Source: Escherichia coli
Lineage (GTDB): Bacteria > Pseudomonadota > Gammaproteobacteria > Enterobacterales > Enterobacteriaceae
Length of the DNA stretch: 64,000 bases
Direction: 5' to 3' (one strand)
Assembly: GCF_044324875.1 (NCBI RefSeq)
Contig: NZ_CP172185.1
Notes under the pieces: generated by a model
Told to the model about the DNA's origin: nothing
Databases searched by the model: none
Seen by the model: only the letters and a program-made list of their open reading frames with translations
Program-made: the position numbers and the translations under genes
Shown: positions 13,080 to 31,322 of the stretch, in pieces
Layout: each line of letters begins with the position of its first letter
Numbering within the stretch: the stretch's first letter is position 1

Positions 13080-14020
13080 GCGTGGGCTCCTTCATGACGA
13101 CGAATGCGCGGGTCCAGCGCGGCGTTGAGCAAATCAACAATCAAATTACAGACCACAAAAACCACCACCATCATCAGCGTAAAGCACTGGATCACCGGAT
13201 AGTCACGGTTAAAAATCGCCGACACCGCATAGCGCCCGACGCCCGGCCAGGCAAAGATGTTTTCGATAATCATCGTCCCGCCAATCAGTTCGCCAATGTG
13301 CATCCCCACGGCGGTGATCATCGGCAGCGAGGCATTGCGCAGAATATGACGACGTTCGGTCTGTTTGTCATTCAGGCCGCGTAGCCGCGCCCAGGTCACG
13401 TGACGCTGACCGGCGACGTCCAGCATGCTGGCGCGCAGTAGCCGTGCATTAATCGCCAGCGACATAAAGGCAATGGAAACCGCAGGCAAAATGATGTGCT
13501 GCCAGCCGCCGTAGCCCATCGCGGGTAGCCATTGCAGATATACCGAAAACGCCATCACCAGCAAAAACGCCAGCCAGAAGTTGGGCATCGACACGCCGAG
13601 AAACGCGATGAAACGTACGGCGAAATCCGGCAGACGATCGCGATGGCGCGCCGCCCAGATACCGAGCGGTACGGAAGTGAGCAGAATTAATACCAGCGCG
13701 GCACCTGCAAGTTCCAGCGTGGCGGGCAGGAAGTTCAGCATATCGTCCAGCACCGGGCGTTGGCTGGCGAATGAGATACCAAAGTCAAGATGCAGCGCCT
13801 TCCACAACCAGGTGCCGTACTGGACATACAGCGGCTGATCCAGCCCCAGCATGGTGCGTGTAGAGGCCAGCATCTCCGGCGTCGGCGGCAGGTTAGACAG
13901 ACGCAGATAATCGAGCGCCGGGTCGCCGGTGCCGAGGCGCAGCATCAGAAAAATGATCACCGAGGCGGCGAGCACCATCGGGATCAGCAGCAGAAAGCGG
14001 CGTAATACGTAACGCAACAT
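13076..14020 (-). CDS. nikB: Nickel ABC transporter permease NikB
   Basis: DppB/OppB-type permease, 314 aa. Confidence 0.9.
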
Positions 14021-15594
14021 TAAGGTTTCACCGGTTTAATCTGTTCGAACGGAATTTCGGTGGCGATCGGCGCGTAGGGGATGTTACCCAGCTCCGGTTT
14101 TGATACCACCATCATTGAGATGTAACTGATAGGCAGATAAACCGCCTCGTCATGCAGACGGGTCAGAATGTCGCGATACAGCGCCTGACGTTGCGTTTCG
14201 TCATGGGTCGCCAGCACTTCGCCGATCTCTTTATCAATTAGCGGCTTGTCGGCTAATCCTTGCTGTGCCTGGAAATCAGCGTGCGACGGTACGCGCATTG
14301 AACTCAGGAAGGCGTGTGGATCGTATGGCGCGCCCCAGGTGCGGTGGAAAATCATGCCAAAACGACCGTCGCGCTGACGAGCATAGATACTGCTCTCTTC
14401 TTCGCCAATCAGCGAGACATCTGCGCCAATCTGGCGCATATCAGCCTGAATGATTTCCGCCATCGATTTGCTTAACGCATCGGTGCCGATGAACGACAGT
14501 TCAATGCGCAGCGGCTGACCATTTTTCTCGCGGATGTCTTTGCCCGCAGGCAACGTCCAACCGGCTTTTTCCAGCAACGCTTTCGCTTTCTGCGGATCGT
14601 ACTGGCGCGGTTTCAGGCCGAGGTTGGCATAGGGCACAGAAGGAGCAAACAGGGTGTCTGCGACCTGCTGGGTGCCATACAACGCGTTATCAATCAGCGA
14701 TTTTTTGTTTACCGCGTAATTGAGTGCTTCACGTACGGCCAGCTCGTTGGTGGGGGCTTTGGCAGTATTGAGCGCCAGCATCACGGTTTCGATCGGCTGT
14801 GACAGTTGGGTATGGTAAGCCGGGTTCTGGCTAAAGCGGGCGAAGGTATCGAGCGGTAATAACCCTTCGTTTCCGTACAGCAGGTCGATATCGCCAGTTT
14901 CAAACGCCACCGCGCGGGTAGTCGGGTCCGGGATGACGTTAAAAGTGATCTTCTTAATCGCCGGCTTCTCGCCCCAGTAGTTTTCGTTACGGACAAAGAC
15001 ATCGTACTGATTCAGTTTCGATTCCTGCAAAACCCACGGCCCGGTGCCAATCGGCGCTTTAATTCCGTTCATGGTTTCATGGTTTTTAAACTGCGAGGGG
15101 GCGATAAAACGGAAAGGGCGTGGCAGGGCCAGTTCTTGCAGGAAAGGATAGTAGGCGCTTTTCAGGGTGATTTGCAGCTCTGTTTTACTGAGTGCTTTGA
15201 CATCAACAATCTGGTTTGCCAGCTCCAGCCAGGCGTGACGTTGACGGTTATCGAGCACTGCGCGGAAGTTTTCTGCCGCCGCCTCTGCATCAAACGGTTC
15301 GCCGTTGGAGAATTTCACGTCATCACGCAGGGTGAAGGTCCAGGTTTTGCCATCTTCCGAATGGGTCCAGCTTTTTGCCAGCCACGGGATCACCGAACCG
15401 TCTGCCTGATATTTCACCAATGGTTCATAAACCATGCTCTGGGCGAACATCTGGTTAGGCGTGTAAAGGTGCGGGTTTAGTGGCCCGACATTCACCGGCC
15501 AGGCGGTGGTGATTTCATCTGGTGCAGCGGCATGGACGATAAAAGACGCACAAGCCAGCAGCGCAAATAGAGTGCGGCGGAGTGTAGAGAACAT
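14020..15594 (-). CDS. nikA: Periplasmic nickel-binding protein NikA
   Basis: 524-aa family-5 solute-binding protein with an N-terminal signal peptide. Confidence 0.9.
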
Positions 15595-15704: not shown

Positions 15705-16292
15705 TCAGTTAACTGAATCGATCCATTGCACACTGTCGGCGGAGAGCGTAAAGGGGGTAGGGGTGCAGATCGCCAGGCTTAAATTTTCTAGCTGACAATG
15801 GCTGACTGACAGTGATGAGTGATAGGTGCTGTCTACGCTGACGATTTGCCAGGCGCTGCCGCCACGCTGTTTAACGATGGCTTCTTTGCGCGTCCAGATG
15901 CGCCAGAACATTTCCAGTTGCTGATCGGGATGCACGGCGTCCATCTCAGCGTGTTCCCCGAGGCTGAACACGGCGTTCGCCAGCCAGCGCCAGTTGGCGC
16001 GCGGGCGAATCACTTCGATATCGCAGCCGACTTCGCCTTCATCGCTCAACAGCAGGGCGATATCGTCACCGCTATGGCTTAAGTTGAACCATAGCGGCGT
16101 TTCCGGCGCGAATGCCGGTTTGCCTTGTTCGCCATAGATGATCTCCGGTAGCGGGGAAAGCGTGTGCGAAAGTAATGCACGCCCCGCCAGCCAGCGTTCG
16201 CGTCGTGGACCTTGCGGTGCTTGATCGCGTAAAGCCGGTGGCAGTGGAGCTGCGCTTAAGGTCGAAACTTTCCCCAGAACTATCCGATACAT
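15705..16292 (-). CDS. acpT: 4'-phosphopantetheinyl transferase AcpT
   Basis: 195-aa product starting MYRIVLGKVSTLS; its start lies 1 bp after the stop of the upstream ketosynthase gene, so it is the terminal gene of the cluster transcription unit. Confidence 0.85.
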   Translation of the reverse strand: MYRIVLGKVSTLSAAPLPPALRDQAPQGPRRERWLAGRALLSHTLSPLPEIIYGEQGKPAFAPETPLWFNLSHSGDDIALLLSDEGEVGCDIEVIRPRANWRWLANAVFSLGEHAEMDAVHPDQQLEMFWRIWTRKEAIVKQRGGSAWQIVSVDSTYHSSLSVSHCQLENLSLAICTPTPFTLSADSVQWIDSVN

Positions 16293-16293
16293 A

Positions 16294-17523
16294 TCAGGGC
16301 CAACGTTTAATGATGATGGATGTATTAATGCCGCCAAAGGCAAAGTTGTTACTCTGCAAAAACTCACAATCAACCTTGCGGGCTTCATGCATGATGTAAT
16401 CCAGCGCGCCACAGTTCGGGTCTGGTTTATTCAGGTTTAGCGTAGGCGCAAACCAACCTTCGCGCATCATTTGCAGACTCATCCAGGCTTCGAGCGCGCC
16501 ACAGGCACCAAGCGTATGACCAAAATAACTTTTCAGCGAGGAGAGCGGCACATTATCACCGTAAATGGTTGCTGTCGCCAGACTTTCTGCCATATCACCA
16601 CGATCGGTCGCCGTACCATGCGCCGAAATATAGCCGATATCACTTGCACTTAACCCGGCGATTTTTAACGATTTTTCCATACAATATTGCATGGTCTCAC
16701 GCTGAGGCTGGGTAATATGTGCCGCGTCGCAGTTAGTCGCAAAGCCGACGATTTCACCGTAAATGGTCGCGCCGCGCGCTTTGGCGTGCTCCAGTTCTTC
16801 AAGAATCAGCGTACCTGCGCCTTCACCAATCACCAGCCCGTCGCGGTTTTCATCGAACGGTGAAGGTGTGGTTTTCGGCGCATCATTGTGCTGGCTGGTG
16901 GCGAAAAGTGTATCAAATACCGCTGCTTCTGAAGGGCATAACTCTTCGGCACCACCAGCAACCATCACCGTTTGATAACCGTGGCGAATGGCTTCCCACG
17001 CATAACCGATCGCCTGGCTGCCGGAGGTACAGGCGCTGGAGGTCGGGATCACCCGCCCGCGCAGGCCGAAAAACAGACCGGTATTAACGGCGGTGGTGTG
17101 CGGCATCATCTGTACATAGGTGGTGCCGGTGATGTTATTGGTGTGCTTTTCCGTCAGCATGGTGGCAAATTCGCTCACCGGACCGGTACTGCCGGTCGAT
17201 GAACCGTACGCAATGCCCGTTTCGCCGCTGGTTAATATCGGATCGCCAATCAATCCTGCCTGCTCTAACGCCAGCTCGCTGGCACGGGTCGACATTTGCG
17301 ACACGCGGCCCATCGCACGGATACGCTTGCGGGTGTAGTGCTCCGGTAGCGTGAAATCATCAACAGGCGCGCCAAGCAGGGTGTGCAGACCATCGTAGAC
17401 CTGCCACTCCGGCATTTTGCGCACTGCATTCTCATACGCCAGCAGACGCGCGGAAACGTCCTGCCAGTTTTCACCAAAGGCAGTCACGCCGCCCATTCCT
17501 GTAATCACTACGCGACGTGTCAT
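16294..17523 (-). CDS. Beta-ketoacyl-ACP synthase (FabB/FabF-like; ApeR-like by gene order)
   Basis: 409-aa thiolase-fold ketosynthase with active-site Cys (TSSACTSGS) and C-terminal His residues. Confidence 0.8.
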   Translation of the reverse strand: MTRRVVITGMGGVTAFGENWQDVSARLLAYENAVRKMPEWQVYDGLHTLLGAPVDDFTLPEHYTRKRIRAMGRVSQMSTRASELALEQAGLIGDPILTSGETGIAYGSSTGSTGPVSEFATMLTEKHTNNITGTTYVQMMPHTTAVNTGLFFGLRGRVIPTSSACTSGSQAIGYAWEAIRHGYQTVMVAGGAEELCPSEAAVFDTLFATSQHNDAPKTTPSPFDENRDGLVIGEGAGTLILEELEHAKARGATIYGEIVGFATNCDAAHITQPQRETMQYCMEKSLKIAGLSASDIGYISAHGTATDRGDMAESLATATIYGDNVPLSSLKSYFGHTLGACGALEAWMSLQMMREGWFAPTLNLNKPDPNCGALDYIMHEARKVDCEFLQSNNFAFGGINTSIIIKRWP

Positions 17524-18251
17524 AACATCCCTCCGTTGATGGAAATAACCTGGCGGGTGACGTAACCCGCAATATCAGACATTAAATAGCTGGCAAGCCC
17601 GGCAACTTCTTCCGCCTGGCCCATGCGTTTCATGGGGATCATCGACATTGCCTCTTTCAGGGCGCTCTCTTCCATTTCGATCATCCCGGTATCAATAAGC
17701 CCCGGCGCGATGCAGTTGACGGTGATTTTGCGCTTCGCGAGTTCGATAGCCAGTGCTTTTGTTGCGCCGATAATTCCGGCTTTGGCAGCGCTGTAGTTCA
17801 CCTGTCCGCGATTGCCCATCACGCCGGAAACCGAGGACAGCGTGATGATGCGTCCACCCTGGCGTGTGCCGATCATCGGCATAATGCACGGCTGAATAAC
17901 GTTGTAGAAACTGTCGAGATTGGTGTGGATCACCGCATCCCAGTCGTCATCGCTTAAAGCCGGAAAAGCGGCATCGCGGGCGATCCCGGCGTTACTAACC
18001 ACGCCGTACCAGGCACCGTTTTGCGCGATTTCGTGCTCCAGCACTTCCCGACACTGTTCGCGGTTTGCGACGTCGAAACTGAGCAAACGCCCGTTACCCC
18101 CGTTGGCGACAATGGCATTTAGCGTTTCCTGAGCGCCTGTGGCGTCACGGTGATAGTGAACGCCAATATTAAAGCCGTCTGCCGCCAGTTGGCAGGCGAT
18201 GGCGCGACCAATGCCTTTGCTGGCACCAGTAACCAGAACTGAACGACTCAT
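17520..18251 (-). CDS. 3-oxoacyl-ACP reductase, SDR family (FabG-like; ApeQ-like)
   Basis: N-terminal TGASKGIGRAIA Rossmann motif and YSAAK catalytic motif. Confidence 0.85.
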   Translation of the reverse strand: MSRSVLVTGASKGIGRAIACQLAADGFNIGVHYHRDATGAQETLNAIVANGGNGRLLSFDVANREQCREVLEHEIAQNGAWYGVVSNAGIARDAAFPALSDDDWDAVIHTNLDSFYNVIQPCIMPMIGTRQGGRIITLSSVSGVMGNRGQVNYSAAKAGIIGATKALAIELAKRKITVNCIAPGLIDTGMIEMEESALKEAMSMIPMKRMGQAEEVAGLASYLMSDIAGYVTRQVISINGGML

Positions 18252-18715
18252 CAGGACGCTCCTTGTTGAAACAGGGTGGTAAGTTCTTCCGCGGTCGGCT
18301 GGAAGGTGTTAATGCGGCCCGTTGCCGTGCCGTTGTTGATGCTGCACTCAAAACTGCCGAAGCGATCGTCTTGCATCAGGAGTTTGACGGTAATGGTCAG
18401 CGTCTGGCCTGCGGGCAGAATGCCAGCGGCGCAAAGCAATTCACGTGCGCCCAGTACCATCCCTAACTCAATACTGTTTTTGCCCTGCTGGTGGCGATGC
18501 CAGCCAGACCAGACGCCGACGGTTTGCGCCATCAATTCAAGGGCAAACCAGCCAGGGAGATTGCCGTCCGGGTCGAGAAACGGTGCCAGTACGCCACTGG
18601 GCGAGACCGTTACACGGCACACCGCGCTGTCATCGCTGACGCTCACCACTTCTTCCAGCAGTAACATGGGCGCGTCGTGGGGCAGATAAGCGCCGGGGGA
18701 TAAATAGTGGCTCAC
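18251..18715 (-). CDS. Hotdog-fold beta-hydroxyacyl-ACP dehydratase (FabA/FabZ-like; ApeP-like)
   Basis: 154-aa hotdog-fold protein between the KR and KS genes; 1-bp overlap with the reductase gene. Confidence 0.7.
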   Translation of the reverse strand: MSHYLSPGAYLPHDAPMLLLEEVVSVSDDSAVCRVTVSPSGVLAPFLDPDGNLPGWFALELMAQTVGVWSGWHRHQQGKNSIELGMVLGARELLCAAGILPAGQTLTITVKLLMQDDRFGSFECSINNGTATGRINTFQPTAEELTTLFQQGAS

Positions 18716-19890
18716 GAAACCCTCCCGAGCAGAATGCTGGCGTTATTGCCGCCAAAGGCGAAGGAATTGGACAGGATCACCGGACGTGCCAGCGGCTGTG
18801 GTTGTTCGATAATGCCGCACGGTGGCAGCGTGGGATCGCGCGGCGACAGGCTGAAGTCCTGAGCGGGCAGCGGTAAATCACGCTCTAAGATCAACATACT
18901 GATTGCCGCTTCGGTAATGCCCGCTGCGCCCAGCGTGTGTCCGGTCAAATGTTTGGTGGAGCTGCACGGTACGCGTTCGCCAAACAGGGCGTTTACCAGC
19001 ATCGATTCAATCTGGTCGTTGAGTTGTGTGGCGGTGCCGTGCAGGTTGATATAGCCCACCTCATCCGGCGTAAGCTGCGCATCAGCCAGCGCCTGGTTAA
19101 TGGCGCGAATTGCGCCTTCGCCCTGTGGATGCGGGGCCGAAATATGATAAGCGTCGCTCGATTCACCGACGCCCAGCAAGGCGATGGGCTGCGGTTCGCG
19201 GGTCAACAGCATCAGCCCCGCACCTTCGCCAATGGTGATGCCCGCGCGGTCACGACCAAACGGCTGACATAAGGTTGGCGAGAGCGATTCGAGGCTGTGA
19301 AAACCGTTAATCGGCATTCGGCTCAGGGTGTCTGCACCACCCACAATGGCGGCATCGACCAGCCCCGCCTCGATAAGCCTGCGCCCGCTGATCATCGCTC
19401 TGGCACTGGAGGAGCAGGCGGTTGAAAGGGTATAAGCTGGGCCGTCGAGCGCCAGCCAGTGGCTGAGAAAACGCGACGGATCGCCGAGCTCTTGTTGTGC
19501 ATAGTGCCACGTGGTGCTCGGCTGCCCGTGGGTGCGCAGGTTAACGTGCGTGTCGCCTTCATGCAGGCCGGAGGTGCTGGTGCCAAGCACAATCGCGATG
19601 CGCTCGCGGCCATATTTCGCAATAGCGTCATCAACCTGCGGCTGGATCTGCGCCAGCGCCGCCAGCAGGATCTGATTGTTGCGCGAGCGGTGCGCAGCGA
19701 ATTTTTCCGGGATAACCGGAAGCTCGCCATCCACGCCAGCCAGGACCGCCTGCGGATGCCCCTGCAACCAGCCTGCGCGCGGGCGCATGCCGGGAGCGAC
19801 ACCGCGAGTCAGGTTGGCTGCGATATCGTCAAGGTTATTTCCCAGGGCGTTGATCATGCCGACGGCGGAAATGTAAATCATATCAGTCAC
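18712..19890 (-). CDS. Beta-ketoacyl-ACP synthase (ApeO-like elongating ketosynthase)
   Basis: 392-aa ketosynthase with active-site Cys (STACSSS) and conserved His motifs. Confidence 0.8.
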   Translation of the reverse strand: MTDMIYISAVGMINALGNNLDDIAANLTRGVAPGMRPRAGWLQGHPQAVLAGVDGELPVIPEKFAAHRSRNNQILLAALAQIQPQVDDAIAKYGRERIAIVLGTSTSGLHEGDTHVNLRTHGQPSTTWHYAQQELGDPSRFLSHWLALDGPAYTLSTACSSSARAMISGRRLIEAGLVDAAIVGGADTLSRMPINGFHSLESLSPTLCQPFGRDRAGITIGEGAGLMLLTREPQPIALLGVGESSDAYHISAPHPQGEGAIRAINQALADAQLTPDEVGYINLHGTATQLNDQIESMLVNALFGERVPCSSTKHLTGHTLGAAGITEAAISMLILERDLPLPAQDFSLSPRDPTLPPCGIIEQPQPLARPVILSNSFAFGGNNASILLGRVS

Positions 19891-20467
19891 CTAAATATTG
19901 AATGGTGATGTGGTATTTAAAGACATGCTGTTCAATGCTGATTGGCACGCGTTTTCCCTGGCGATTCAGATAGGTGATTTCCGTGACCAGTTTGCCGCTG
20001 GCGTTACGCAGTTCGCGTTTGTCACCGTTGTCGCGAAGCGTCCATCCAGCGGGGAGTTGCGGTTGCCAGGCGCTAATCGGCCAGTGGCTAAGCATCACGT
20101 CAGCCAGCACCTGACTTGCGGGCGGCAACTGTGGGACGACGATGGATTGCTCGGCGCGTAGCCCTTGCGCATCGTAGGTCACCAGAAACAGACGAATGCC
20201 GACCGACGACAGCCCGGCAAGGGTGATTTTCTGGTCGTCGGCGTTAAGCATCACTAGCAGAGACTGGGTTTTGCCGTTGAAGCTGCCGCTCAATAGTTGC
20301 TGGGAATTAACGGCGGGCGAAATCCCTGGTGCCGGCAGCGTGATGCGCGTGCCAGGTTGCAGCCACGCCTGTGGGCGACCTTCCTGTTCCGGTTGCGAGT
20401 GGCTACAGCCGGTGAGGATAAGCGTAGCGGTCAGGGCGAACGCTCGCCAGAATGTGGGTTTGATCAT
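19883..20467 (-). CDS. Lipoprotein of the cluster export module (ApeN-like)
   Basis: Signal peptide with lipobox LTGC near the N-terminus; overlaps both flanking genes. Confidence 0.65.
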   Translation of the reverse strand: MIKPTFWRAFALTATLILTGCSHSQPEQEGRPQAWLQPGTRITLPAPGISPAVNSQQLLSGSFNGKTQSLLVMLNADDQKITLAGLSSVGIRLFLVTYDAQGLRAEQSIVVPQLPPASQVLADVMLSHWPISAWQPQLPAGWTLRDNGDKRELRNASGKLVTEITYLNRQGKRVPISIEQHVFKYHITIQYLGD

Positions 20468-22782
20468 TTTTTTGTTCTCTTTTTATCGGGCATAGCCAGC
20501 GGCGAAAGCAGGAAGGCGGTGAAAATACCGCTCACCAACACAATGCCAAAACTGCTGATGGCCTGGGTGGCGCTGAATACCAGCATTCCCAGCGCCAGCA
20601 AGGTGGTGAGCATTGCCAGCGTGATCGCCAGTAGGGAAGTTAACGGTGTACCGCGCGGATTACTGAAAAACAGCGTGTAATTGATGCCGATGCCAAGCAC
20701 CAGCACCAGCGCCAGTAGCGAAAAGAGATTCACCGCCTGCCCGCTCATCGCCAGCACTGCCAGACCGCAGCCCAGCGAAAGTACCGAAGGCACCAGGCTG
20801 ATAAGCCCTTTGCGCCAGCCGAGGCGGGCCACTGCGCCGCAGGCAATCACCGCCAGCGCCACCAGCAACAAACCGGTTAAGACGTAGCGGTAAAGTGCGA
20901 ACAACTCATCAAAGGTGCTTTTGCGATCAACCCAGGCAATGCCGCCAGGGTAATCGCTGGCGATTTCCTGCAACAACGCGCTACTTTTAACCCCTTCAAC
21001 CGGCACCAGTACGCCGCTTTCGCCGTTTTTCAGCGTCAGCCACAGCAGACGCCAGCCTTCACTGGCGGGGCTTGCCAGCCATTCATCGACCTTCACTGGC
21101 ATGGCGTTGAGATCCGGATTCACTGCCGCCAGCCCGGCATTTTGCAGTGCTTTTGTTACTGTCGGGGCAGCCGTTTTCAGCAGATGTAAATCTTCCTCCT
21201 GCCGCGCCAGGGAGTTCAGCGGAATGGTGCGGTAGTTGCTGATAAGCCCCTCTTTTTTCGCATTCTCCAGCGAGGCGGTAAATTTCTCCAGCCGCCGCAA
21301 TGTTTGCTGTGGAGAGTCGCCGTAAACTACAAACCATTTTTGATCGACGCTTTGTCCGGTCAGGGCGGTAATGGCTTTCTCTTGGGCCAGAATATGCTGC
21401 GGTAGCGCCTGTAACTGCGAGATATCGTCGTCGACGCGCAGCATTGACATCCCCGCCAGCGAAAACAGCGCCAGCGCGACGGGCAGACCCAGCGACAGTT
21501 TTTTATTACGCCGCCACGCAGCCAGCCAGCGCAGCATCAGCGCCATCGCCGGAACCGGACGCACCGGCAGGCCACGGCACAGCCACGGATGCCAGAACAG
21601 GACGGTCAGACAGGAGGCGCTCAACCCGACGGCGGCAAAAATCGCCATCTGGCGAATGCCGGGGAAGGGGGCGAGCATCATAATCAGATACGCCGCCACG
21701 GTGGTGAGCAGCGCCAGCAGCAGGGCATTGCGCACTTTCGCCAGGCTTTGCCACGGCGAAACGTCATTGCCGTGCACCATCCGCTCGGTGAGGTAATAGA
21801 GCGTGTAGTCAGCGGAAATGCCGATAACGCTCATGCTCATCACCAGCGTCATCAGGTGTAATTCGCCGAAAATCAACAAGGTGGCGACCGTTCCCGCCAG
21901 CGCGCCGATGCCGATGGAAATCACGCAAAGCAGCAATGGGCGTAAAGAGCGGAACACCGCCACAATCAGTAATATCACCCCCAGCAGCGTTGCCACGCCC
22001 AGGTTGGAGATATCCTGCTTCGCCTGTTGGCTGGCGTAATCGCTGTAAAACACCGTGCCGCGCGAGAGCAACTGCGCCTGCGGGTAACGCGTTTTCAGAT
22101 CCTTTTCCAGCGTATTCAGGGTCGTGATGAGCTGGTGGGTTTGCTGCATATCAAACGACGATCCCGCCAGTTCGCCGTGCAGCAGATACCAGTAGTTGCC
22201 CTGGGGATCCTGCGTCACCAGCCAGCCGTCCATCAGCCGCAAACGCTGGCCGTTTTTCGCCATCGCCAGCTGCGAGCCACGCATTAACATCAGCGGATCG
22301 TTTTGCAGCTCCTTACCGCTTACCCCGGAGAACGCAGAATAAAGCTGGGAGAGGATCCACTGCGCCTGCGCTTCGCCGCCGTTTTGCAGGCGCGCGCGGG
22401 TGTCGGGGTCAACCAGGCCGTTGCGGTGCTGCCAGAAAAACGCTCCCCACGCCTGCTGGCTGGCGGCATCCATTGGCCCTTTAACGTCGCCGAGCGCAGC
22501 GGATTTTTGCAGCAGCGTCAGCCACTCCTGAGCCACCCTGGGATTAGCCTCTTTACCGGGGCTGACCAGCCACACCAGTTGGCGGTCCAGACGCTGCATA
22601 AAGCCGTCATTCAGCGCTGGAGGAATATCGCCCATCGCCTGTTTGGGTAACATAGCCAGCACGCTACTGTTCAGTCGTGATTGCGGCAACAGGATCAGCA
22701 ACGCCGCCGCCATGACCAGGCAGACGATCCCCCATAACAGCGCCGGGCGTTTACTGGGCGGCAAAACGTTGGCGTTCGTCAT
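20464..22782 (-). CDS. MMPL/RND-superfamily exporter (ApeM-like)
   Basis: 772-aa protein with two blocks of transmembrane helices separated by large soluble domains, typical of MMPL-type lipid exporters. Confidence 0.8.
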   Translation of the reverse strand: MTNANVLPPSKRPALLWGIVCLVMAAALLILLPQSRLNSSVLAMLPKQAMGDIPPALNDGFMQRLDRQLVWLVSPGKEANPRVAQEWLTLLQKSAALGDVKGPMDAASQQAWGAFFWQHRNGLVDPDTRARLQNGGEAQAQWILSQLYSAFSGVSGKELQNDPLMLMRGSQLAMAKNGQRLRLMDGWLVTQDPQGNYWYLLHGELAGSSFDMQQTHQLITTLNTLEKDLKTRYPQAQLLSRGTVFYSDYASQQAKQDISNLGVATLLGVILLIVAVFRSLRPLLLCVISIGIGALAGTVATLLIFGELHLMTLVMSMSVIGISADYTLYYLTERMVHGNDVSPWQSLAKVRNALLLALLTTVAAYLIMMLAPFPGIRQMAIFAAVGLSASCLTVLFWHPWLCRGLPVRPVPAMALMLRWLAAWRRNKKLSLGLPVALALFSLAGMSMLRVDDDISQLQALPQHILAQEKAITALTGQSVDQKWFVVYGDSPQQTLRRLEKFTASLENAKKEGLISNYRTIPLNSLARQEEDLHLLKTAAPTVTKALQNAGLAAVNPDLNAMPVKVDEWLASPASEGWRLLWLTLKNGESGVLVPVEGVKSSALLQEIASDYPGGIAWVDRKSTFDELFALYRYVLTGLLLVALAVIACGAVARLGWRKGLISLVPSVLSLGCGLAVLAMSGQAVNLFSLLALVLVLGIGINYTLFFSNPRGTPLTSLLAITLAMLTTLLALGMLVFSATQAISSFGIVLVSGIFTAFLLSPLAMPDKKRTKK

Positions 22783-23356
22783 CGGTCAGTTGCGCTGGCG
22801 TCAGTTGATGTTGGGTAAGAGCGATATCGGTGCGATCGCCCTGTTTATCATTAAGCTGAATGCTCTCCAGATAGGTTTGCCCGGCGAGATCGATGGTGTT
22901 GAAAATTTTATCCAGCGGCGTGGTGGTCGGCGTCAGGCGCAGTGTCCAGCGGCCTTCGCCTTTGTCAGCAAATTCGACGCGGAAATTTTGTTCCAGCACT
23001 TTGCGATCGGCCTGGAACAGCGCGCGCAGCAGGTGGTTAAACTGGAACATCTGCGGGTTATTTTCTGCCGTGATGATTTGCGGCGGCTGACCGTTGATCA
23101 CCTGCACCATGCGTTTATCGTCCAGCAATAGTTGCATGGGAAATGGTGAGGTTTGATCCCACAACAGCCCCTGGTCGCGGGCGATCAACATCTGGCCCTG
23201 AGATCGTAGCGGCTGCGGCAGATCTTTAATCGTCCGGGTTTGATCGAAATGAGCGCGGATCACCGGCTGTTCGGTAAAGCGTTGCTGAAGATCGTCCAGG
23301 TTCAGGGCGCTCACAAACGGGCTAATCAGCAGCGCCAGCAGTGGTAAAAATTTCAT
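22751..23356 (-). CDS. LolA-like outer-membrane lipoprotein carrier family protein (ApeL-like)
   Basis: 201-aa secreted protein with a cleavable signal peptide; position next to the MMPL exporter. Confidence 0.65.
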   Translation of the reverse strand: MKFLPLLALLISPFVSALNLDDLQQRFTEQPVIRAHFDQTRTIKDLPQPLRSQGQMLIARDQGLLWDQTSPFPMQLLLDDKRMVQVINGQPPQIITAENNPQMFQFNHLLRALFQADRKVLEQNFRVEFADKGEGRWTLRLTPTTTPLDKIFNTIDLAGQTYLESIQLNDKQGDRTDIALTQHQLTPAQLTDDERQRFAAQ

Positions 23357-23775
23357 GGTTTGACTCCCATGCGTTCAAACAAAATATCGGGGCTGACAAA
23401 GCACAGTTCGCGGCTTTGCTCGTCGACCGCGACCTGAATGGTGTATCCGGTGGTGGCGCGTTTGCCCGTTTCGGCATCGAAAATCTGATAGCCAATCCGC
23501 AGACGGTTTTCGAACTCTTCGATATGTGCACGCACGCGGATGCGTTGCTCAAAGGTGAGGGCGTGGCGATATTTCACCCGCGCATCGACCACTGGCCACA
23601 AATAACCGGACTCTTTCATCTGCCGATAGCCGTAATTGAACTGGTTGAGCAGCGCCTCGCGGGCCACTTCAAAGTAGCGAAAATAGTTACCGTGCCAGGC
23701 CACGCCCATCATATCGACGTCGTGAAAGGGAATGGTCAGCTCGACTTCAGCGGTAAATCGGGGATCGTTAAGCAC
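23353..23775 (-). CDS. Hotdog-fold acyl-CoA/acyl-ACP thioesterase (4HBT-like; ApeK-like)
   Basis: 140-aa protein resembling YbgC/4-hydroxybenzoyl-CoA thioesterase family members. Confidence 0.7.
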   Translation of the reverse strand: MLNDPRFTAEVELTIPFHDVDMMGVAWHGNYFRYFEVAREALLNQFNYGYRQMKESGYLWPVVDARVKYRHALTFEQRIRVRAHIEEFENRLRIGYQIFDAETGKRATTGYTIQVAVDEQSRELCFVSPDILFERMGVKP

Positions 23776-23778
23776 CCT

Positions 23779-25455
23779 TTACTCCTTGTCCTGGACTTCC
23801 GGCAGTTGCCAGAAATCGAAAAAATTAAACCAGTCGAGGGGCGACTGGAGCGCGTAATGTTCCAGACGCGCGGCGTAATGATCGATAGCGTTTTGCAGCG
23901 CCTGCTGGCGTTCGCCACGCGGCAACAGCAGCGGGTCGGCAAAGGTTTCGCAGTGAATATGCAGCTTGCCGTGCTGGCGCAGGGCGAAAATCAGATTCAC
24001 CGGGCAGCGCAAAATAGACGCAAGAATAAACGGCCCCTGTGGGAAAGGCGCAGGCTGGCCCATAAACGGACTCCAGCAGACGCGCCAGTCGCCGCCGCGT
24101 TGCGGGTTGACGGCGATGCGGTCACCGACAATCGCCACCCATTCGCCGTTATCCAGCTTCTCTTTCAGCAGGATGGCGGTTTCCGGGCCGATATCTGTTA
24201 CCGGGAGCAGGTTGATGCCTGCCTGCGGGGCCATCTCCTGCATTATCTGTTTAAAGCGTTGGGCGTTTTCGCTAAACACCAGCGCGTTAATGGTTTTGTA
24301 GCCCTGAATTTTTGCCAGCGCCCGGCACACTTCCACATCGCCAAGATGCGAGGCCAGCAGCAATTTGCCGCGCGGATCGCTGACGTTAAGTGCCGCTTCT
24401 GCGCCTGGTGCAAACAGCACATCACGCCCGAGTTGCAGCTCGCCGCGCCAGCTGGCGATTTTGTCGAGCATGGCGTTGCCGAAACGTAGAAAATGCTGAT
24501 AGCTGTTGAGTTTTGCTGCCTGTGGTTGTTGTTGGCGCACACGGGCGAGCCAGTCTTGCGACGCTTTACGTGCACGAGCAGCGGTGAGCCAGTAGACGCC
24601 CACCACCGGGTAAAGCAGCGCGGTAAACGCAGTTCTTCCCAGCAGACGCCAGACCAGCAGCATCAGGCGCATTCCCCATAACCCTTTCACTTCGCTCTGC
24701 CGCGCCCAGTGGCTGGAAGAGTGGCGCATCAGCAGTGAAGGAATACGCGGCAACATGCCGAAAAACAGACGTGTGTGCATCAGCGAGATGCGGACGTTAT
24801 CTTTCAGGGCATCAAAATGCGAAAGCCCGTCCAGCGGATAGGTGACGCGGGTCGGCACGAAATAACTGGTATTTCCCTGCCAGTAGAGGCGCACCATCAC
24901 TTCGGTGTCAAAATCCATCCGCTTGCCGATGGTAGCGTATTTTGCCAGTTGCAGCGTTGGCGCAACCGGATAAACGCGAAAGCCGCACATACTGTCTTTC
25001 AGTTGCAGGGAGAGCGTTTCGATCCATACCCACACGTGGGTGACCCAGCGCCCGTACAGCCGTGAGCGGGGGATGGAGTCATCGTAAATCGGCTGGCCGG
25101 AGATCAGCGCCGCAGGCTGCTGTTCAGCGAGTGCCAGCAGTTTAGGGATGTCTTCAATCGCGTGCTGACCGTCAGCATCCACCTGCACCGCATGGCTGAA
25201 GCCCGCGTCTGCCGCTGCCTGTAAGCCACGCATCACTGCCGCGCCTTTGCCTGCGTTTTCTGCCAGGCGAATTAAGGTCACGCCAGGCTGTTCGGCAACC
25301 AGATTATCCAGTTGCTGTTGCGTGGCGGCATCGCTGCCGTCATCCACTACAATACAGGGCAGATTAAATGGCTTAAGACGCGCCAGCACGCCCGGCATCA
25401 TCGCGCCGTGGTTGTAGCAGGGGATCAACACGCAGGGAGAAAAGTTTACCGACAT
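23779..25455 (-). CDS. Bifunctional glycosyltransferase family 2 / lipid A-type acyltransferase fusion (ApeJ-like)
   Basis: 558 aa: N-terminal GT-A fold features (VDDGSDAAT, DADGQH) followed by a C-terminal domain resembling lauroyl/myristoyl (HtrB/LpxL-type) acyltransferases. Confidence 0.7.
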   Translation of the reverse strand: MSVNFSPCVLIPCYNHGAMMPGVLARLKPFNLPCIVVDDGSDAATQQQLDNLVAEQPGVTLIRLAENAGKGAAVMRGLQAAADAGFSHAVQVDADGQHAIEDIPKLLALAEQQPAALISGQPIYDDSIPRSRLYGRWVTHVWVWIETLSLQLKDSMCGFRVYPVAPTLQLAKYATIGKRMDFDTEVMVRLYWQGNTSYFVPTRVTYPLDGLSHFDALKDNVRISLMHTRLFFGMLPRIPSLLMRHSSSHWARQSEVKGLWGMRLMLLVWRLLGRTAFTALLYPVVGVYWLTAARARKASQDWLARVRQQQPQAAKLNSYQHFLRFGNAMLDKIASWRGELQLGRDVLFAPGAEAALNVSDPRGKLLLASHLGDVEVCRALAKIQGYKTINALVFSENAQRFKQIMQEMAPQAGINLLPVTDIGPETAILLKEKLDNGEWVAIVGDRIAVNPQRGGDWRVCWSPFMGQPAPFPQGPFILASILRCPVNLIFALRQHGKLHIHCETFADPLLLPRGERQQALQNAIDHYAARLEHYALQSPLDWFNFFDFWQLPEVQDKE

Positions 25456-25829
25456 AGGCGGATCTTCCCGCTACTGGCGGTGTGGCGGGCGTCACCGTCG
25501 TGACGCTGATAGCTAAAGCTCAGAATCTGGCGTTCTTCCTGCCAGTTAAGCGTGAGCGTGACGCGGTTGTCCGGCAGCAACGGGGACTGGAATTTGATGT
25601 TCTGAATAGAGTGAAAACGCCAGCCAGGCGCGAGCAGAGTGAGCGCGTAGCTCATCGCCCAGTCGATTTGTGCAACTCCTGGGAGTAACGGCTGCACGGC
25701 AAAATGGCCGCGAAACCAGAACAGATCTGCCCTGAGATGCAAAACAATCTCAAGGTGATTCGCTTGTGCCTGATGGCGCTCGATTTCATGGGGCTTCATG
25801 AAATAACTCCTGTAATTGCGCATAGACAC
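25446..25829 (-). CDS. Hotdog-fold dehydratase (ApeI-like)
   Basis: 127-aa hotdog-like protein overlapping both neighbours. Confidence 0.6.
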   Translation of the reverse strand: MSMRNYRSYFMKPHEIERHQAQANHLEIVLHLRADLFWFRGHFAVQPLLPGVAQIDWAMSYALTLLAPGWRFHSIQNIKFQSPLLPDNRVTLTLNWQEERQILSFSYQRHDGDARHTASSGKIRLCR

Positions 25830-27147
25830 GCTTGTTCATACTGTTTACTGGCATTTCATCAATAACGCGCCAGTAACGCGGAATAGCAACTGGCTCCAGC
25901 GTCGGGCGCAGTAATCGCCGCCAGGTCATTTCCTGGCTATGCCCGCCGCCGTTCTGCCATTGCAGGCGAGCTTCGTCATCCAGCACCAGCAAAACGCCGA
26001 TGCTCTGACGCCCGCCGCGCGTAACGGGAACTGCCGCCGCCTCGCGAATGCCGTCCAGCGCCAGCAGACGTTGTTCTACTTCCTGCAGAGAAATACGTTT
26101 TTCTTCAATCTTAACGATGCGCCCACGACGCCCCATCAGATGGAACTGACCGTCCTGGCTAAACTGCAAGAGATCATCGAGTAACAGGCCGTTATCTTCC
26201 GCTATCAGCGGTGAAAAGAGACGAAATGCTTCACCTTCGGCCTGGAAGTGCATACCTGGAAAGGGCAGCCAGCGGCGTTGCTCTTGTTCGCGGTAACGCC
26301 AGGCAATGACGCCGGTTTCCGTGCTGCCGTAGATTTCATCAGGCCAGACGCGCAGCCAGCTCGCGGTGTGTTTTACGTCCTGCCACGGCAGCTCACCGCC
26401 AGCAGAGAGAAGCACCTGAACGGGCGGCGGAGAAAGCTGGGTATCCAGCCGTTTCAAAAATGCCGGGCTGCTGATGAAGATATAGCGATGCTGGTGACTC
26501 AATGCGGCAAACTGTTCGACATACCAGAGCATGGCGGCGTGCAGCGGTAATCCCAGCGCCATTGGCAGGAAAACGCGAAAAGTCAGGCCGTACAGATGCT
26601 GCGGCAATACGGAACCGACGACACGACATCCGGCAAGACGTGCGCCTAATCGTTCAGCCAGCAGTTCTGCTTCACGGTCCAGCAAATGAACAGGTTTAAT
26701 TACCCGCTTTGGCTGCCCCGTAGAACCGGAGGTAAATAGCTCGATATAAGCGTCTGGCGCTATAGCGGCAAAGGTGAATGATTGTGTCGCGACTTGTGGG
26801 GAACTTGCTACCAACAGCAATGAACCTTGCCAGTTAAGATCGCTGTCGCTAAGTACACCATCGAACAGTTCACGTTGTTCATTAAGCTGGATGACACGGT
26901 TATGCCCCGGAAGCACCGGCGTTTTTCCGGCGTGTAGCGTGGCAAGCAGGGCAACGATAAACAAATAACTGTTCTCAAAGCACAGCGCCCAGCGTTCACC
27001 CGGCTGTTGCTGCAAGCGGCAGATAAGTTGCGCGACATCGTGACGCAAATCGCCCAGTGTCCACGAGCTTTCGTCCAGCCACGCAATGGGCGTGTCATCA
27101 GGGCGTGGCGCAGTCAGCCAGCGTGCAAGCGGTAAGGTCTGCTTCAT
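25786..27147 (-). CDS. AMP-dependent synthetase/ligase, acyl-ACP synthetase-like (ApeH-like, likely aryl starter activation)
   Basis: Adenylate-forming enzyme motifs (TSGSTGQPK AMP-binding motif); start set at the ATG at 27147, immediately after the upstream gene stop, rather than the ORF-track start at 27186. Confidence 0.75.
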   Translation of the reverse strand: MKQTLPLARWLTAPRPDDTPIAWLDESSWTLGDLRHDVAQLICRLQQQPGERWALCFENSYLFIVALLATLHAGKTPVLPGHNRVIQLNEQRELFDGVLSDSDLNWQGSLLLVASSPQVATQSFTFAAIAPDAYIELFTSGSTGQPKRVIKPVHLLDREAELLAERLGARLAGCRVVGSVLPQHLYGLTFRVFLPMALGLPLHAAMLWYVEQFAALSHQHRYIFISSPAFLKRLDTQLSPPPVQVLLSAGGELPWQDVKHTASWLRVWPDEIYGSTETGVIAWRYREQEQRRWLPFPGMHFQAEGEAFRLFSPLIAEDNGLLLDDLLQFSQDGQFHLMGRRGRIVKIEEKRISLQEVEQRLLALDGIREAAAVPVTRGGRQSIGVLLVLDDEARLQWQNGGGHSQEMTWRRLLRPTLEPVAIPRYWRVIDEMPVNSMNKRVYAQLQELFHEAP

Positions 27148-27725
27148 GAGCGATCTCTTTTTATCACCTGACGGCGCACCAGCCATTCACCTGCCATTAA
27201 CGTTCCCATCAAAAAATAAGCAATCATGCCGTTCCAGGCGGTCCATAACGACATATCGCCATAAAGCGCGGTAAAGAGGGCAATTCCGCCGTTAATGATG
27301 AAAAAGCCGCACCAGATTTGCGTGACACGGCGGGTATAGCGCACGCCCTTTTCCGGGAGGTCTGGCTCCTGCAAACGTGCCAGCCGCTCAACTATCGGCA
27401 TTGTCGACCACAGCGAACCGCCAAAAACCGCCAGCATGATCGCGTTAACCACTACCGGGTAAAACAGCAGTAGCTGGTGCGTTTTCAACAGAAAGCTGGC
27501 GACACACAATGCGATGCCCACGACAGCGACGATTTGTGTGACGGCTTGTAGCGGCCCCGCCCGGCGACGGGTCTGGCGCAGGCGCAACAATAGCAGCAAC
27601 GCTATTAGCGGCAACAACCAGTGCAGGCCGTTATGCGCCAGGCCAAACCAAATCACAAACGGCCAGGCGAGCAGCAATAATCCAGTCAGCAGCTTAATCA
27701 TCGGTAGCGAGCGAATGCCCGACAT
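27144..27725 (-). CDS. Integral membrane protein of the cluster (ApeG-like)
   Basis: 193-aa hydrophobic protein with several predicted transmembrane helices. Confidence 0.6.
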   Translation of the reverse strand: MSGIRSLPMIKLLTGLLLLAWPFVIWFGLAHNGLHWLLPLIALLLLLRLRQTRRRAGPLQAVTQIVAVVGIALCVASFLLKTHQLLLFYPVVVNAIMLAVFGGSLWSTMPIVERLARLQEPDLPEKGVRYTRRVTQIWCGFFIINGGIALFTALYGDMSLWTAWNGMIAYFLMGTLMAGEWLVRRQVIKRDRS

Positions 27726-27729
27726 CAGA

Positions 27730-27981
27730 TCAGGCTTCTTGTAGCAGGCGTTCTACAGCCTCTACGACATCCTGAACTGTGCGCACTGCTTTAAACTCTT
27801 CCGGCTTGATTTTCTTACCGGTTTTCTTTTGCAGGTGCACAATCATGTCAACGGCGTCGATGCTGTCCAGTTCCAGATCTTCGTACAGGCGCGCTTCAGG
27901 TTTGATGTCCTGCGGATCGATTTCAAACAGCTTAACCAGCAGGGCTGAGACTTCCTGATAGACGGTTTGTTGTTCTGTCAT
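27730..27981 (-). CDS. Acyl carrier protein (second of a tandem pair; ApeF-like)
   Basis: 83-aa protein with the phosphopantetheine attachment motif LELDSIDAVD. Confidence 0.85.
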   Translation of the reverse strand: MTEQQTVYQEVSALLVKLFEIDPQDIKPEARLYEDLELDSIDAVDMIVHLQKKTGKKIKPEEFKAVRTVQDVVEAVERLLQEA

Positions 27982-27992
27982 GATGGCTTTCC

Positions 27993-28250
27993 TCAGGCGC
28001 GTTGCGCAGCAATGAAAGAGGCCAGAGTGGCGACGGAGAAAAAGTGCTGACGCATCTCTTCGCTTTCGGCTGAGAGCACCACGCCGTACTCATTTTTTAC
28101 TGCCAGTCCCAGTTCCAGGGCATCGATGGAATCCAGTCCTAAACCGTCGCCGAACAGCGGCGCATCGGTCTCGATATCATCAGGAGTCAACTCGTCCAGA
28201 TTGAGGGTGCTGATGATGAGGTTTTTAATTTCCAGATAAAGCGCTTGCAT
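27993..28250 (-). CDS. Acyl carrier protein (first of a tandem pair; ApeE-like)
   Basis: 85-aa protein with motif LGLDSIDALEL around the conserved Ser. Confidence 0.85.
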   Translation of the reverse strand: MQALYLEIKNLIISTLNLDELTPDDIETDAPLFGDGLGLDSIDALELGLAVKNEYGVVLSAESEEMRQHFFSVATLASFIAAQRA

Positions 28251-29064
28251 TATTTATTCCTGAGAGAGGTAAACAACCTTGTTGTAATAGAAGCAAAAGA
28301 TGCCGGTTTAACTGCCTTGCTGCCAGCGCCGGTTCTTGTGAAGTTGCATCGTAAAATTTATTGATTTCAACCCGACCATGGACTTCAACCGTAAAAAACG
28401 GCCGGTCAGGTGGAACGTCATACCATTTACTTTGTTTATCCAGCAGATGCTCGCTACAGCCGATCGTCACGATGCGTAAATCGCTGGCACAGCGCACGGC
28501 AATATTCGCCGCCCCGCGCTGCAGCGTCATTTTTTCACCGGGCTTCGTTCGCGTGCCTTCGGGGAAAATCAGGATAGTGTCACCCTGTGCCAGTCGCTGT
28601 TGGCAGCGGGGTAACAGGGTTTCAGCTTCGCTGTTGATTAAATAATCTACCGCCCGCACGACGCCGCCAAGAAAAGGATTTTTTAACAGCGCGCTTTTCA
28701 CCAGGCAGTCAGTTTCTGGCATGACTGACGCCAGCAGCACGTAATCGATCAGCGTGGGATGATTGGCTACGACGAGGCAACCGCGTTCCTGACGTAAAAT
28801 TTCAGCGCCATCAATACGATAATCCAGCACGCCAAGCCCTTTCGCGACAGTTAAAAACAGGCGAAAACTGGCGGCAATGCTGCGACGCGCCAAACGACGG
28901 CGGCGGGAAGTATCCCACACCAAAACTAACAATATGTTAAACCACACGACAGAAAGCAGCAGGCCGCCGAGACCAAACAGGGCAAAACATAACCCGGTCA
29001 TGACCAGTCGCCAGGTCCACTCCAGACGTGACATCAGCTTACTCATCTGCGGCTCCAGCGCCAT
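28225..29064 (-). CDS. Lysophospholipid acyltransferase family protein (PlsC/LPLAT-like; ApeD-like)
   Basis: N-terminal transmembrane segment and acyltransferase motifs (NHPTLIDY, FPEGTR). Confidence 0.75.
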   Translation of the reverse strand: MALEPQMSKLMSRLEWTWRLVMTGLCFALFGLGGLLLSVVWFNILLVLVWDTSRRRRLARRSIAASFRLFLTVAKGLGVLDYRIDGAEILRQERGCLVVANHPTLIDYVLLASVMPETDCLVKSALLKNPFLGGVVRAVDYLINSEAETLLPRCQQRLAQGDTILIFPEGTRTKPGEKMTLQRGAANIAVRCASDLRIVTIGCSEHLLDKQSKWYDVPPDRPFFTVEVHGRVEINKFYDATSQEPALAARQLNRHLLLLLQQGCLPLSGINNASALSGN

Positions 29065-29789: not shown

Positions 29790-29805
29790 AATTATTAAGT
29801 GACGA

Positions 29806-30873: not shown

Positions 30874-30932
30874 AACCTGTTAAGAGGGAATTAAATTATT
30901 ATCGGACCGCAGCGGCCCGACTTTAGGAAGAA

Positions 30933-31322
30933 TTATAAATCTGCGCCCGCTGACAAATTCAGTTGAATATCTTTGTCGAGATTGCGGACCCAGCGATTGT
31001 AGTTTTTATGAATTTGTCCGCCTGACGCTTGTAGGTTCTGGCTATTTTCATAATTGATATCGTAGCTGGATGCCGTGTAGTTAATGCGAATTTCGGCTGA
31101 ATGATCGCGTGACTGTTGACGTGCTTTAATTACGCCTTGTCCGGCTTCGGACATAATCCATTTGCGTTCAACGCCAGCTTTCAGAATCGCTTTTTTCACT
31201 TGTTCCTGGGTATGACCAGCGCTGACGGTTGAGTGAACCTGATCAATTGGCGCAGTACGCGCGCAACCCGCTAAAGCACCCACAACAGCAATAGCCGCAA
31301 ACCATTTCATGTAATGTCTCAT
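30933..31322 (-). CDS. Small lipoprotein, first gene of the cluster (ApeA-position)
   Basis: 129-aa ORF with signal peptide and lipobox LAGC; AT-rich promoter-like region upstream. Confidence 0.6.
   Translation of the reverse strand: MRHYMKWFAAIAVVGALAGCARTAPIDQVHSTVSAGHTQEQVKKAILKAGVERKWIMSEAGQGVIKARQQSRDHSAEIRINYTASSYDINYENSQNLQASGGQIHKNYNRWVRNLDKDIQLNLSAGADL

Follow-up and report, generated by a model that had tools for sequence, protein, structure and literature searches.

The window analysed here, a stretch of 64,000 nucleotides, is chromosomal DNA of E. coli. At the nucleotide level it is identical to E. coli GN06156 (100%) and nearly so to strain 042 (99.9%). Its minus strand carries the aryl-polyene (APE) pigment cluster, apeA to apeR, at about 16294-31310, as delimited by Pfam, by the RefSeq annotation of E. 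coli 042 and by collinearity with the APE_Ec cluster of CFT073. The phosphopantetheinyl transferase gene acpT (15705-16292, minus strand; Pfam ACPS and RefSeq annotation) is located just downstream of apeR, and an AcpT-like gene is also found downstream of apeR in Cupriavidus. According to De Lay and Cronan 2006, as cited in PMC8253772, AcpT activates the carrier proteins of the APE cluster. Few bacterial biosynthetic clusters are as widespread as the APE clusters, which shield pathogens such as uropathogenic E. coli against oxidative stress (10.1101/2020.12.19.423268; PMC8253772). Scanning the cluster for promoters and terminators produced counts near the shuffled expectation, with no clear internal signal. 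When a second, more divergent type of cluster was looked for in E. coli, the distant-mode search added nothing to the 825 genomes already obtained in near mode.

Within this cluster, three overlapping genes of the minus strand are apeL, apeM and apeN. The apeL gene (22751-23356) encodes a periplasmic LolA-family carrier protein of 201 amino acids with a Sec-type signal peptide; apeM (20464-22782) encodes an inner-membrane RND/MMPL-type transporter of 772 amino acids, with 12 transmembrane (TM) helices, two periplasmic domains and the motif GISADY in TM4; and apeN (19883-20467) encodes a DUF3261 lipoprotein of 194 amino acids, with the lipobox LTGC, a serine at position +2 and a LolB-like fold. 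The original prediction had described a lipobox-containing lipoprotein, an MMPL transporter and a secreted LolA-fold protein with overlapping reading frames; the three ORFs are where it placed them, Pfam and the export signals agree with its descriptions, and the ORFs match genes that RefSeq calls in both E. coli 042 and GN06156. The trio sits between apeK (thioesterase) and apeO (ketosynthase), as assigned from RefSeq and the Pfam families of the cluster genes, and is flanked on both sides by ApeI-like and ApeP-like dehydratase genes (Pfam). Compared with the CFT073 proteins c1192, c1191 and c1190, ApeL, ApeM and ApeN are of equal length and share 98.5%, 96.5% and 96.4% amino-acid identity respectively, and the same genes, with identical lengths, order and overlaps, are found in CFT073 APE_Ec and in Xenorhabdus doucetiae. 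The chromosomal site differs: whereas the CFT073 cluster is part of an island that carries an integrase, close to pgaA and dgcT, the cluster described here lies by acpT, between nikA and yhhT.

The 3' end of apeL overlaps the start of apeM by 32 nt, and apeM and apeN share the 4 nt ATGA, which confirms the predicted overlap of the three reading frames. The sequence also shows a 4-nt ATGA overlap between apeK and apeL, while apeN and apeO are separated by 1 nt with the RefSeq ATG start of apeO, or overlap by 8 nt if an upstream GTG is used. In other Enterobacterales the apeL/apeM overlap is 32 nt in 64 loci, 29 nt in 10 and 35 nt in 3, and the apeM/apeN overlap is 4 nt in 62 loci. As these overlaps are conserved across the Enterobacterales, the genes are real and the possibility of chance ORFs was rejected. 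Of 80 Enterobacterales species, about 76 show the order K-L-M-N-O (the remainder corresponding to contig ends or a split match), which is also kept in Francisella, Pseudoalteromonas and Cupriavidus. Strict adjacency of apeM and apeN is not obligatory: a halogenase gene is inserted between them in Cupriavidus and Pseudoalteromonas, and one metagenomic contig carries a DUF3261 gene beside KS and ApeP only. Concerning the reach of these comparisons, the first homologue search retained relatives of at least 80% identity only, and the genome scan made with that alignment reached the Enterobacterales only; the search of a representative library gave 742 clusters at E <=0.001, of which four genomic contexts were sampled, two of them on contigs too short to inform.

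ApeL matches the Pfam LolA family (PF03548) with 44.9 bits (cut-off 23.6) and LolA_3 with 43.7 bits (cut-off 23), and scores 60.4 bits against the LolA equivalog model TIGR00547, under its cut-off of 112. As judged from its sequence, ApeL is a paralogue-type relative and not the housekeeping LolA. Its N-terminus, MKFLPLLALLISPFVSA/LN, in which V-x-A is conserved among orthologues, looks like a Sec signal peptide, which would place the protein in the periplasm. ApeL also matches PDB entry 8t5j (E 1e-22), the crystal structure of an orthologue of ApeL that belongs to an APE cluster of Francisella; a literature search on the entries 8t5j, 9coz and 9cwl returned no relevant paper. Against the flexirubin-associated equivalog model LolA2_flexi (NCBIfam NF053544), ApeL scores 55 bits (E 6.5e-15), under the cut-off of 125, and is therefore a relative and not an equivalog.

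ApeM matches Pfam MMPL with 32.4 bits (cut-off 20.5). Hydropathy delineates 12 transmembrane segments and two periplasmic loops (residues 33-257 and 448-633), which follow TM1 and TM7 in both the hydropathy profile and the AF2 secondary structure. In Foldseek searches with the AF2 model (pLDDT 79.5), the top five matches are all HpnN (E 9.5e-19 to 1.3e-16), with only about 17% of residues identical when the folds are aligned; HpnN is also the best match by sequence, and AcrB-type pumps appear only among the weaker fold matches. ApeM remains well under the NCBIfam cut-offs of HpnN (48.6 versus 751.85), HAE3 (49.6 versus 351.9), BstA (30.5 versus 1400) and MMPL (actII; 29.4 versus 874.7). By these scores ApeM is a separate branch of the RND superfamily, which has been named the APPE family (10.1101/2020.12.19.423268). 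The TM4 motif GISADY is present in 76 of the 77 enterobacterial sequences, and its residues D325 and Y326 are invariant in an alignment that includes Francisella (A3). TM10 carries GIGINY in the Enterobacterales, with an asparagine and not an aspartate, versus GISMDY in Francisella, so that the Francisella protein has Asp-Tyr in TM4 and TM10 alike. An Asp-Tyr motif is also carried by TM4 of MmpL3.

ApeN matches Pfam DUF3261 with 133.5 bits, and this is its only Pfam match at E values up to 0.01; no NCBIfam model matched, and searches of the PDB sequences, whether by single protein or by profile, gave nothing meaningful. The lipobox L-T-G-C occupies residues 18-21 and is followed by the serine at +2 and then a histidine; together, the lipobox and this serine predict that ApeN is directed to the outer membrane. 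No aspartate was found at +2 in the 72 enterobacterial ApeN sequences with a recognisable lipobox, and the lipobox is retained in the Enterobacterales, Francisella, Pseudoalteromonas and Cupriavidus. The fold is LolB-like, an unclosed beta-barrel with a helical plug, and the closest folds are those of LolB and LolA carriers. When ApeN and ApeL were compared profile to profile, no relationship emerged (probability 0.5%). It is therefore the fold that carries the LolB-like assignment, as ApeN has no sequence link to LolB or to ApeL. The hairpin tip F63-N-G65, flanked by strands 53-63 and 66-76, may correspond to the protruding loop by which LolB inserts an exposed hydrophobic residue into the membrane, F63 being the candidate for this residue.

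On the basis of homology and genomic context, we consider it probable that ApeL, ApeM and ApeN form a dedicated route of the pigment lipid to the outer membrane, most likely in four steps. First, ApeD and ApeJ would join the aryl-polyene chain to a glycerolipid or glycolipid anchor at the inner membrane, as suggested by the structure of the Xenorhabdus APEL. Second, ApeM would lift the finished lipid from the inner membrane into its own periplasmic domains; its fold and motif suggest that it is probably powered by the proton gradient through the conserved TM4 Asp-Tyr pair. Third, the lipid would pass to soluble ApeL, which would shield the acyl and polyene chains, as its family, its signal peptide and the structure of its orthologue suggest. 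Finally, ApeL would hand the lipid to ApeN, which the lipobox, the sorting residue and the fold predict to be anchored in the outer membrane, where it would insert the lipid. The fully specified version of this scheme, a proton-driven relay from an RND pump to a LolA-like carrier and on to a LolB-like outer-membrane receptor, with a pigment glycolipid as cargo, is the reading towards which we lean, by a narrow balance. The original prediction had proposed dedicated trafficking of a lipid-anchored product to the outer membrane, and the domains, folds, export signals and gene order are all consistent with it.

The product of the related Xenorhabdus cluster is a membrane lipid, the APEL glycolipid (10.1101/2020.12.19.423268), and heterologous expression has been reported to yield pigment in the membranes only, with none in the culture supernatant. 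Deletion of apeM abolished detectable APE metabolites, and no scarred (non-polar) mutant was obtained for apeL or for apeN (PMC8253772). The phenotype of the apeM mutant is thus pigment loss and not mislocalisation, which a pure transport defect would not predict. The published phenotypes for these genes concern pigmentation, and a literature search for work that localises the pigment to one membrane or the other in in-frame mutants of apeL, apeM or apeN found none.

Three other explanations were weighed against this route. The one that survives best, although we regard it as improbable, is that ApeM alone carries the pigment lipid to the outer membrane, whereas ApeL and ApeN traffic the lipoprotein ApeA, possibly with the polyene in its anchor, or are accessory. 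Transport by ApeM alone is consistent with its closest solved relative being HpnN, which is described as moving hopanoids in this way. ApeA (apeA, 30933-31310, minus strand) has the lipobox LAGC, LolA and LolB proper ferry lipoproteins, and Johnston et al. themselves raised this alternative (PMC8253772). However, deletion of apeA keeps wild-type pigmentation (PMC8253772), ApeL falls under the cut-off of the LolA equivalog model, and tblastn detected no ApeA in the Francisella, Pseudoalteromonas and Cupriavidus loci, all of which possess apeL, apeM and apeN, this negative being limited by the Pseudoalteromonas and Cupriavidus loci, which stop at apeD and apeC, short of the expected apeA position. 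It is in particular unlikely that the polyene is the lipid anchor of ApeA and is ferried in this form by ApeL and ApeN. We give considerably less credence to the proposal that ApeL, ApeN or both are LolA-fold proteins that carry nothing and have another role, for instance that of a tailoring enzyme or scaffold in the periplasm, like VioE in violacein synthesis, or that of a lipid sensor, like RseB: the polyene is assembled in the cytoplasm but both proteins leave it, the best fold matches are the LolB and LolA carriers, and even in distant taxa translational coupling ties the genes to a lipid-type RND transporter. Finally, AcrB-type drug efflux was rejected and the idea that ApeM is an efflux pump for free aryl polyene or a toxic intermediate, with two unrelated small neighbours, is barely credible, since, despite its membership of the RND superfamily and the AcrB-type pumps among its weaker fold matches, ApeM is closest to the lipid transporters HpnN and MmpL and not to AcrB, the cluster has no adaptor (membrane-fusion) or TolC-like gene, and the L-M-N order and overlaps are conserved.

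The preferred route, from ApeM through ApeL to ApeN, can be compared with several known systems. It resembles the Lol pathway (LolCDE, LolA and LolB) in combining a LolA-family periplasmic carrier with an outer-membrane lipoprotein of LolB fold; it differs from it in the inner-membrane extractor, which is an ABC transporter in Lol and an RND protein in Ape, and in the cargo, a lipoprotein in Lol and presumably the pigment lipid in Ape. HpnN and the mycobacterial MmpL proteins have in common with ApeM the RND fold, the 12 transmembrane helices and the two periplasmic domains, and move lipids towards the outer membrane; we know of no LolA- or LolB-like partner described for HpnN. The flexirubin locus of Flavobacterium johnsoniae contains, like the Ape cluster, LolA-like and LolB-like genes (LolA2 and LolB2), which have been proposed to bring the pigment to the outer membrane and which in Bacteroidota are restricted to flexirubin loci. 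The xanthomonadin and arcuflavin clusters likewise contain LolA-like and exporter genes in pigment loci of the aryl-polyene type, with the same proposed function. In Methylococcus capsulatus, sterol transport by BstA, BstB and BstC also involves an inner-membrane RND protein of the MMPL family, a binding protein in the periplasm and a lipoprotein associated with the outer membrane, all encoded, as for Ape, beside the biosynthesis genes of their lipid. ApeM matches the BstA model (NCBIfam) weakly, but the periplasmic and outer-membrane Bst components are PhnD-like and TRAP-T-like and are unrelated to the LolA/LolB-like Ape proteins.

A role of the RND protein ApeM, the LolA-like ApeL and the LolB-like ApeN in dedicated outer-membrane transport was put forward by Grammbitter et al. 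2020 (10.1101/2020.12.19.423268), and an identical ApeL/M/N transport model by Johnston et al. 2021 (PMC8253772). As this interpretation is already in print, the finding, although real, is not a new one, and as the relay was published as a hypothesis, novelty would lie only in its experimental demonstration. The additions made here are small: (i) the LolB-like fold of the DUF3261 protein, (ii) the identity of 8t5j as an ApeL orthologue and (iii) the conserved Asp-Tyr motif in TM4. Were the relay to operate as proposed, it would be a periplasmic hand-over in the style of Lol in which an RND transporter, and not an ABC transporter, supplies the power. This passage of lipid from an RND protein to LolA- and LolB-like proteins would constitute a new type of lipid trafficking beside Lol, Lpt and Mla, and one more route by which lipid reaches the outer membrane in E. 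coli. A fourth transport component has also been put forward (10.1101/2020.12.19.423268; PMC8253772): apeG, which lies in the same cluster but outside the trio (27144-27725, minus strand). It encodes a small membrane protein that matches no Pfam family above the cut-off, and it is retained in distant APE clusters.

Three overlapping minus-strand open reading frames were delineated in the window: a 201-aa LolA-like protein at 22751-23356 (Pfam LolA, 44.9 bits; LolA_3, 43.7 bits), a 772-aa transporter at 20464-22782 (MMPL, 32.4 bits) and a 194-aa lipoprotein at 19883-20467 (DUF3261, 133.5 bits), every score exceeding the curated cut-off. The N-terminus of the LolA-like protein, MKFLPLLALLISPFVSA/LN, is typical of a Sec signal peptide (read by eye, without a signal-peptide predictor), and the DUF3261 protein carries an L-T-G-C lipobox at residues 18-21. 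As read from the DNA, the LolA-like gene is joined to the thioesterase gene upstream of it through a 4-nt ATGA overlap, the LolA-like and transporter genes overlap by 32 nt, and the transporter and lipoprotein genes again share 4 nt as ATGA. This is the composition of the original prediction, namely a lipoprotein with a lipobox, an MMPL-type transporter and a secreted LolA-fold protein encoded by overlapping frames; its reading, dedicated trafficking of a lipid product to the outer membrane, is likewise supported, by protein families and folds, export signals and gene context.

Across its 3474 nt the stretch matches E. coli GN06156 at 100% identity and E. coli 042 at 99.9%; of 5426 complete E. 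coli genomes, 825 carry it, in every case on the chromosome. RefSeq labels the products "LolA family protein", "MMPL family transporter" and "DUF3261 domain-containing protein". The neighbouring genes encode two carrier proteins, a chain-length factor, ketosynthases, a ketoreductase, ApeI-like and ApeP-like dehydratases, an adenylating enzyme, a lysophospholipid acyltransferase, a glycosyltransferase/acyltransferase, a methyltransferase and a thioesterase, which identifies the region as an aryl-polyene (APE) cluster running from apeA to apeR (~16294-31310) and directly followed by acpT. Gene lengths, order and overlaps match those of the experimentally studied E. coli CFT073 cluster (c1186-c1204), and the proteins are 98.5%, 96.5% and 96.4% identical to ApeL, ApeM and ApeN, respectively; by this layout and these identities, the three genes are apeL, apeM and apeN.

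The finding is real, and what it rediscovers is a set of annotated genes and a published hypothesis. Grammbitter et al. proposed that translocation probably proceeds via the RND transporter ApeM, the LolA-like ApeL and the LolB-like ApeN (DUF3261) (10.1101/2020.12.19.423268). Johnston et al. gave the same export scheme, with ApeL as a "LolA-like molecular chaperone", ApeM as an "RND family transporter" and ApeN as a "DUF3261 - LolB-like membrane protein" (PMC8253772). Conservation of LolA and exporter genes had been pointed out before for the xanthomonadin and flexirubin clusters, and the flexirubin LolA2/LolB2 pair has been discussed in the same outer-membrane transport terms. A literature search found no later paper testing ApeL, ApeM or ApeN, and the remaining value of the finding is the transport mechanism as an experimental question.

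ApeL was termed "cytoplasmic" by Grammbitter et al. (10.1101/2020.12.19.423268); however, the evident signal peptide points to the periplasm instead. ApeL matched PDB 8t5j ("outer membrane lipocarrier LolA family protein") with an E value of 1e-22. The source is Francisella philomiragia, in which the corresponding gene (locus L084, 10001-10585) is part of an APE cluster, where it follows a thioesterase gene and precedes those for MMPL (780 aa) and DUF3261 proteins. An ApeL orthologue thus already has a crystal structure: judged by this gene context, entries 8t5j, 9coz and 9cwl, entered in the PDB under the name of a LolA-family lipoprotein carrier, in fact represent the ApeL of an APE cluster. 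A search of the literature for these three codes found no relevant citing paper. ApeL scored below the cut-offs of both the housekeeping LolA model (60.4 bits against 112) and the flexirubin LolA2 model (55 against 125). Enterobacterial ApeL also bears a C-terminal tail of ~14 residues, LTPAQLTDDERQRFAAQ (window 22751-22795, the 3' end of apeL), encoded mostly by the 32-nt apeL/apeM overlap; in Francisella, the tail is absent from ApeL (alignment A4), as is the gene overlap.

Hydropathy gave ApeM the RND layout, with 12 transmembrane segments and periplasmic loops at 33-257 and 448-633. By sequence, its only solved relatives were the hopanoid transporter HpnN and, much more weakly, AcrB/CmeB-type pumps. 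With an AlphaFold model (33 input sequences, pLDDT 79.5), Foldseek ranked HpnN structures first to fifth (E 9.5e-19 to 1.3e-16), followed by an NPC1-related protein, MmpL4/5 and AcrB/Mex-type pumps. ApeM fell far below the cut-offs of the curated HpnN, HAE3, BstA and MMPL (actII) models and so forms a separate RND branch, named the APPE family in the literature (10.1101/2020.12.19.423268). The TM4 motif is GISADY, whose D325 and Y326 are invariant in an alignment extending to the 27% identical Francisella orthologue. In MmpL3, Asp-Tyr pairs of this kind form the proton relay, and ApeM is by analogy probably proton-driven. The TM10 motif (residues 697-702, window 20674-20691) is GIGINY, with Asn, in 75 of 77 enterobacterial sequences and GISMDY, with Asp, in Francisella, so that in Enterobacterales the relay may rest on a single acidic residue. 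ApeG, a small membrane protein of the cluster, has been suggested to supply energy by ATP or pyrophosphate hydrolysis; a proton-driven ApeM would be compatible with this but would not need it.

For ApeN, sequence searches of solved structures found no relative, and profile comparison with ApeL detected no similarity. The structure model was confident (35 input sequences, pLDDT 83.3, pTM 0.76, mature domain mostly >90). It matched LolB of Vibrio cholerae (8cm1, 10.8), LolB of E. coli (1iwm, 10.5), the ApeL orthologue (8t5j, 10.4) and LolB of Xanthomonas (8orn_D, 10.2), with LolA proteins, RseB and VioE ranking lower, and the first two Foldseek ranks were both LolB. The model thus places DUF3261 in the LolA/LolB superfamily by fold. 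What makes ApeN LolB-like is its lipid anchor with Ser, not Asp, at +2, for which sorting to the outer membrane is predicted in Enterobacterales. The lipobox is retained in Francisella (LSGC), Pseudoalteromonas (LVSC) and Cupriavidus (LAGC).

Scanning one genome per species yielded 80 Enterobacterales loci, and the order C-D-E-F-G-H-I-J-K-L-M-N-O-P-Q-R was collinear in essentially all those uncut by contig ends. The K/L and M/N overlaps are 4 nt in 71 and 62 loci, and the L/M overlap is 32 nt in 64, 29 nt in 10 and 35 nt in 3. In Francisella, K-L-M-N are still together and the ketosynthase block is inverted. Pseudoalteromonas sp. CF6-2 and Cupriavidus metallidurans CH34 keep the full order, with a flavin-dependent, Trp_halogenase-type gene between apeM and apeN (L086 9775-11016 and L087 9187-10902, respectively), which fits halogenated, xanthomonadin-like products. 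DUF3261 is a modest family (742 clusters at 50% identity), and one sampled distant member lies directly 5' of ketosynthase and ApeP-like genes and has no L or M before it. The L-M-N module thus belongs to APE clusters as an old and integral component, although the halogenase insertions and the DUF3261 gene lacking L and M show that its genes are not always strictly adjacent. On metagenome contig ERZ27247557 (L090 7001-7984), a 327-aa protein with a C-terminal DUF3261 domain is encoded beside nadA and a gene for a 4443-aa protein; no APE genes were seen within ~7 kb upstream or 1.4 kb downstream (contig end), so the domain may also be used outside APE clusters.

The best-supported mechanism, drawn from family, fold, export signals and context, is a four-step relay in which the pigment lipid would be finished at the inner membrane, extracted by ApeM, shielded and ferried by periplasmic ApeL, and received and inserted by outer-membrane ApeN. 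Deletion of apeM abolished APE metabolites altogether in a study that obtained no non-polar mutants of apeL or apeN (PMC8253772).

In the window the cluster lies between acpT (15705-16292), which adjoins its apeR end, and yhhT (~31702-32751), with nikA at 14020-15594. AcpT is the phosphopantetheinyl transferase reported to activate the O157:H7 ApeE/ApeF homologues (De Lay and Cronan 2006, as cited in PMC8253772). In Cupriavidus, too, apeR is followed by an AcpT-like gene (L087 15231-15689), an arrangement suggesting that acpT was an ancestral member of the cluster. The CFT073 cluster (L088, NC_004431.1, 18728-33749) occupies another site, within an island close to pgaA and dgcT that contains a tyrosine integrase and IS remnants, and is ~95% identical in nucleotides over apeR-apeH and ~90% over the apeE-apeA end; the cluster therefore moved, or was acquired twice, within E. 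coli.

E. coli P393-F10 (NZ_CP076274.1; L085 2370-5386) holds a decayed copy adjoining CDI toxin/immunity genes, with apeM deleted, apeN truncated, apeO frameshifted and apeJ reduced to a fragment. Elsewhere in the window, a sugar-utilisation block between yhhJ and nikR (4474-10083; GC down to 0.45 at 8-10 kb) encodes a GntR regulator, galactitol-type PTS IIA/IIB/IIC, an FGGY kinase, an HPr-like protein and a class II aldolase, and the end of the window (60776-62445) is of low GC (0.37-0.41) and carries tssD, annotated as an Hcp1-family type VI effector, and yrhA.
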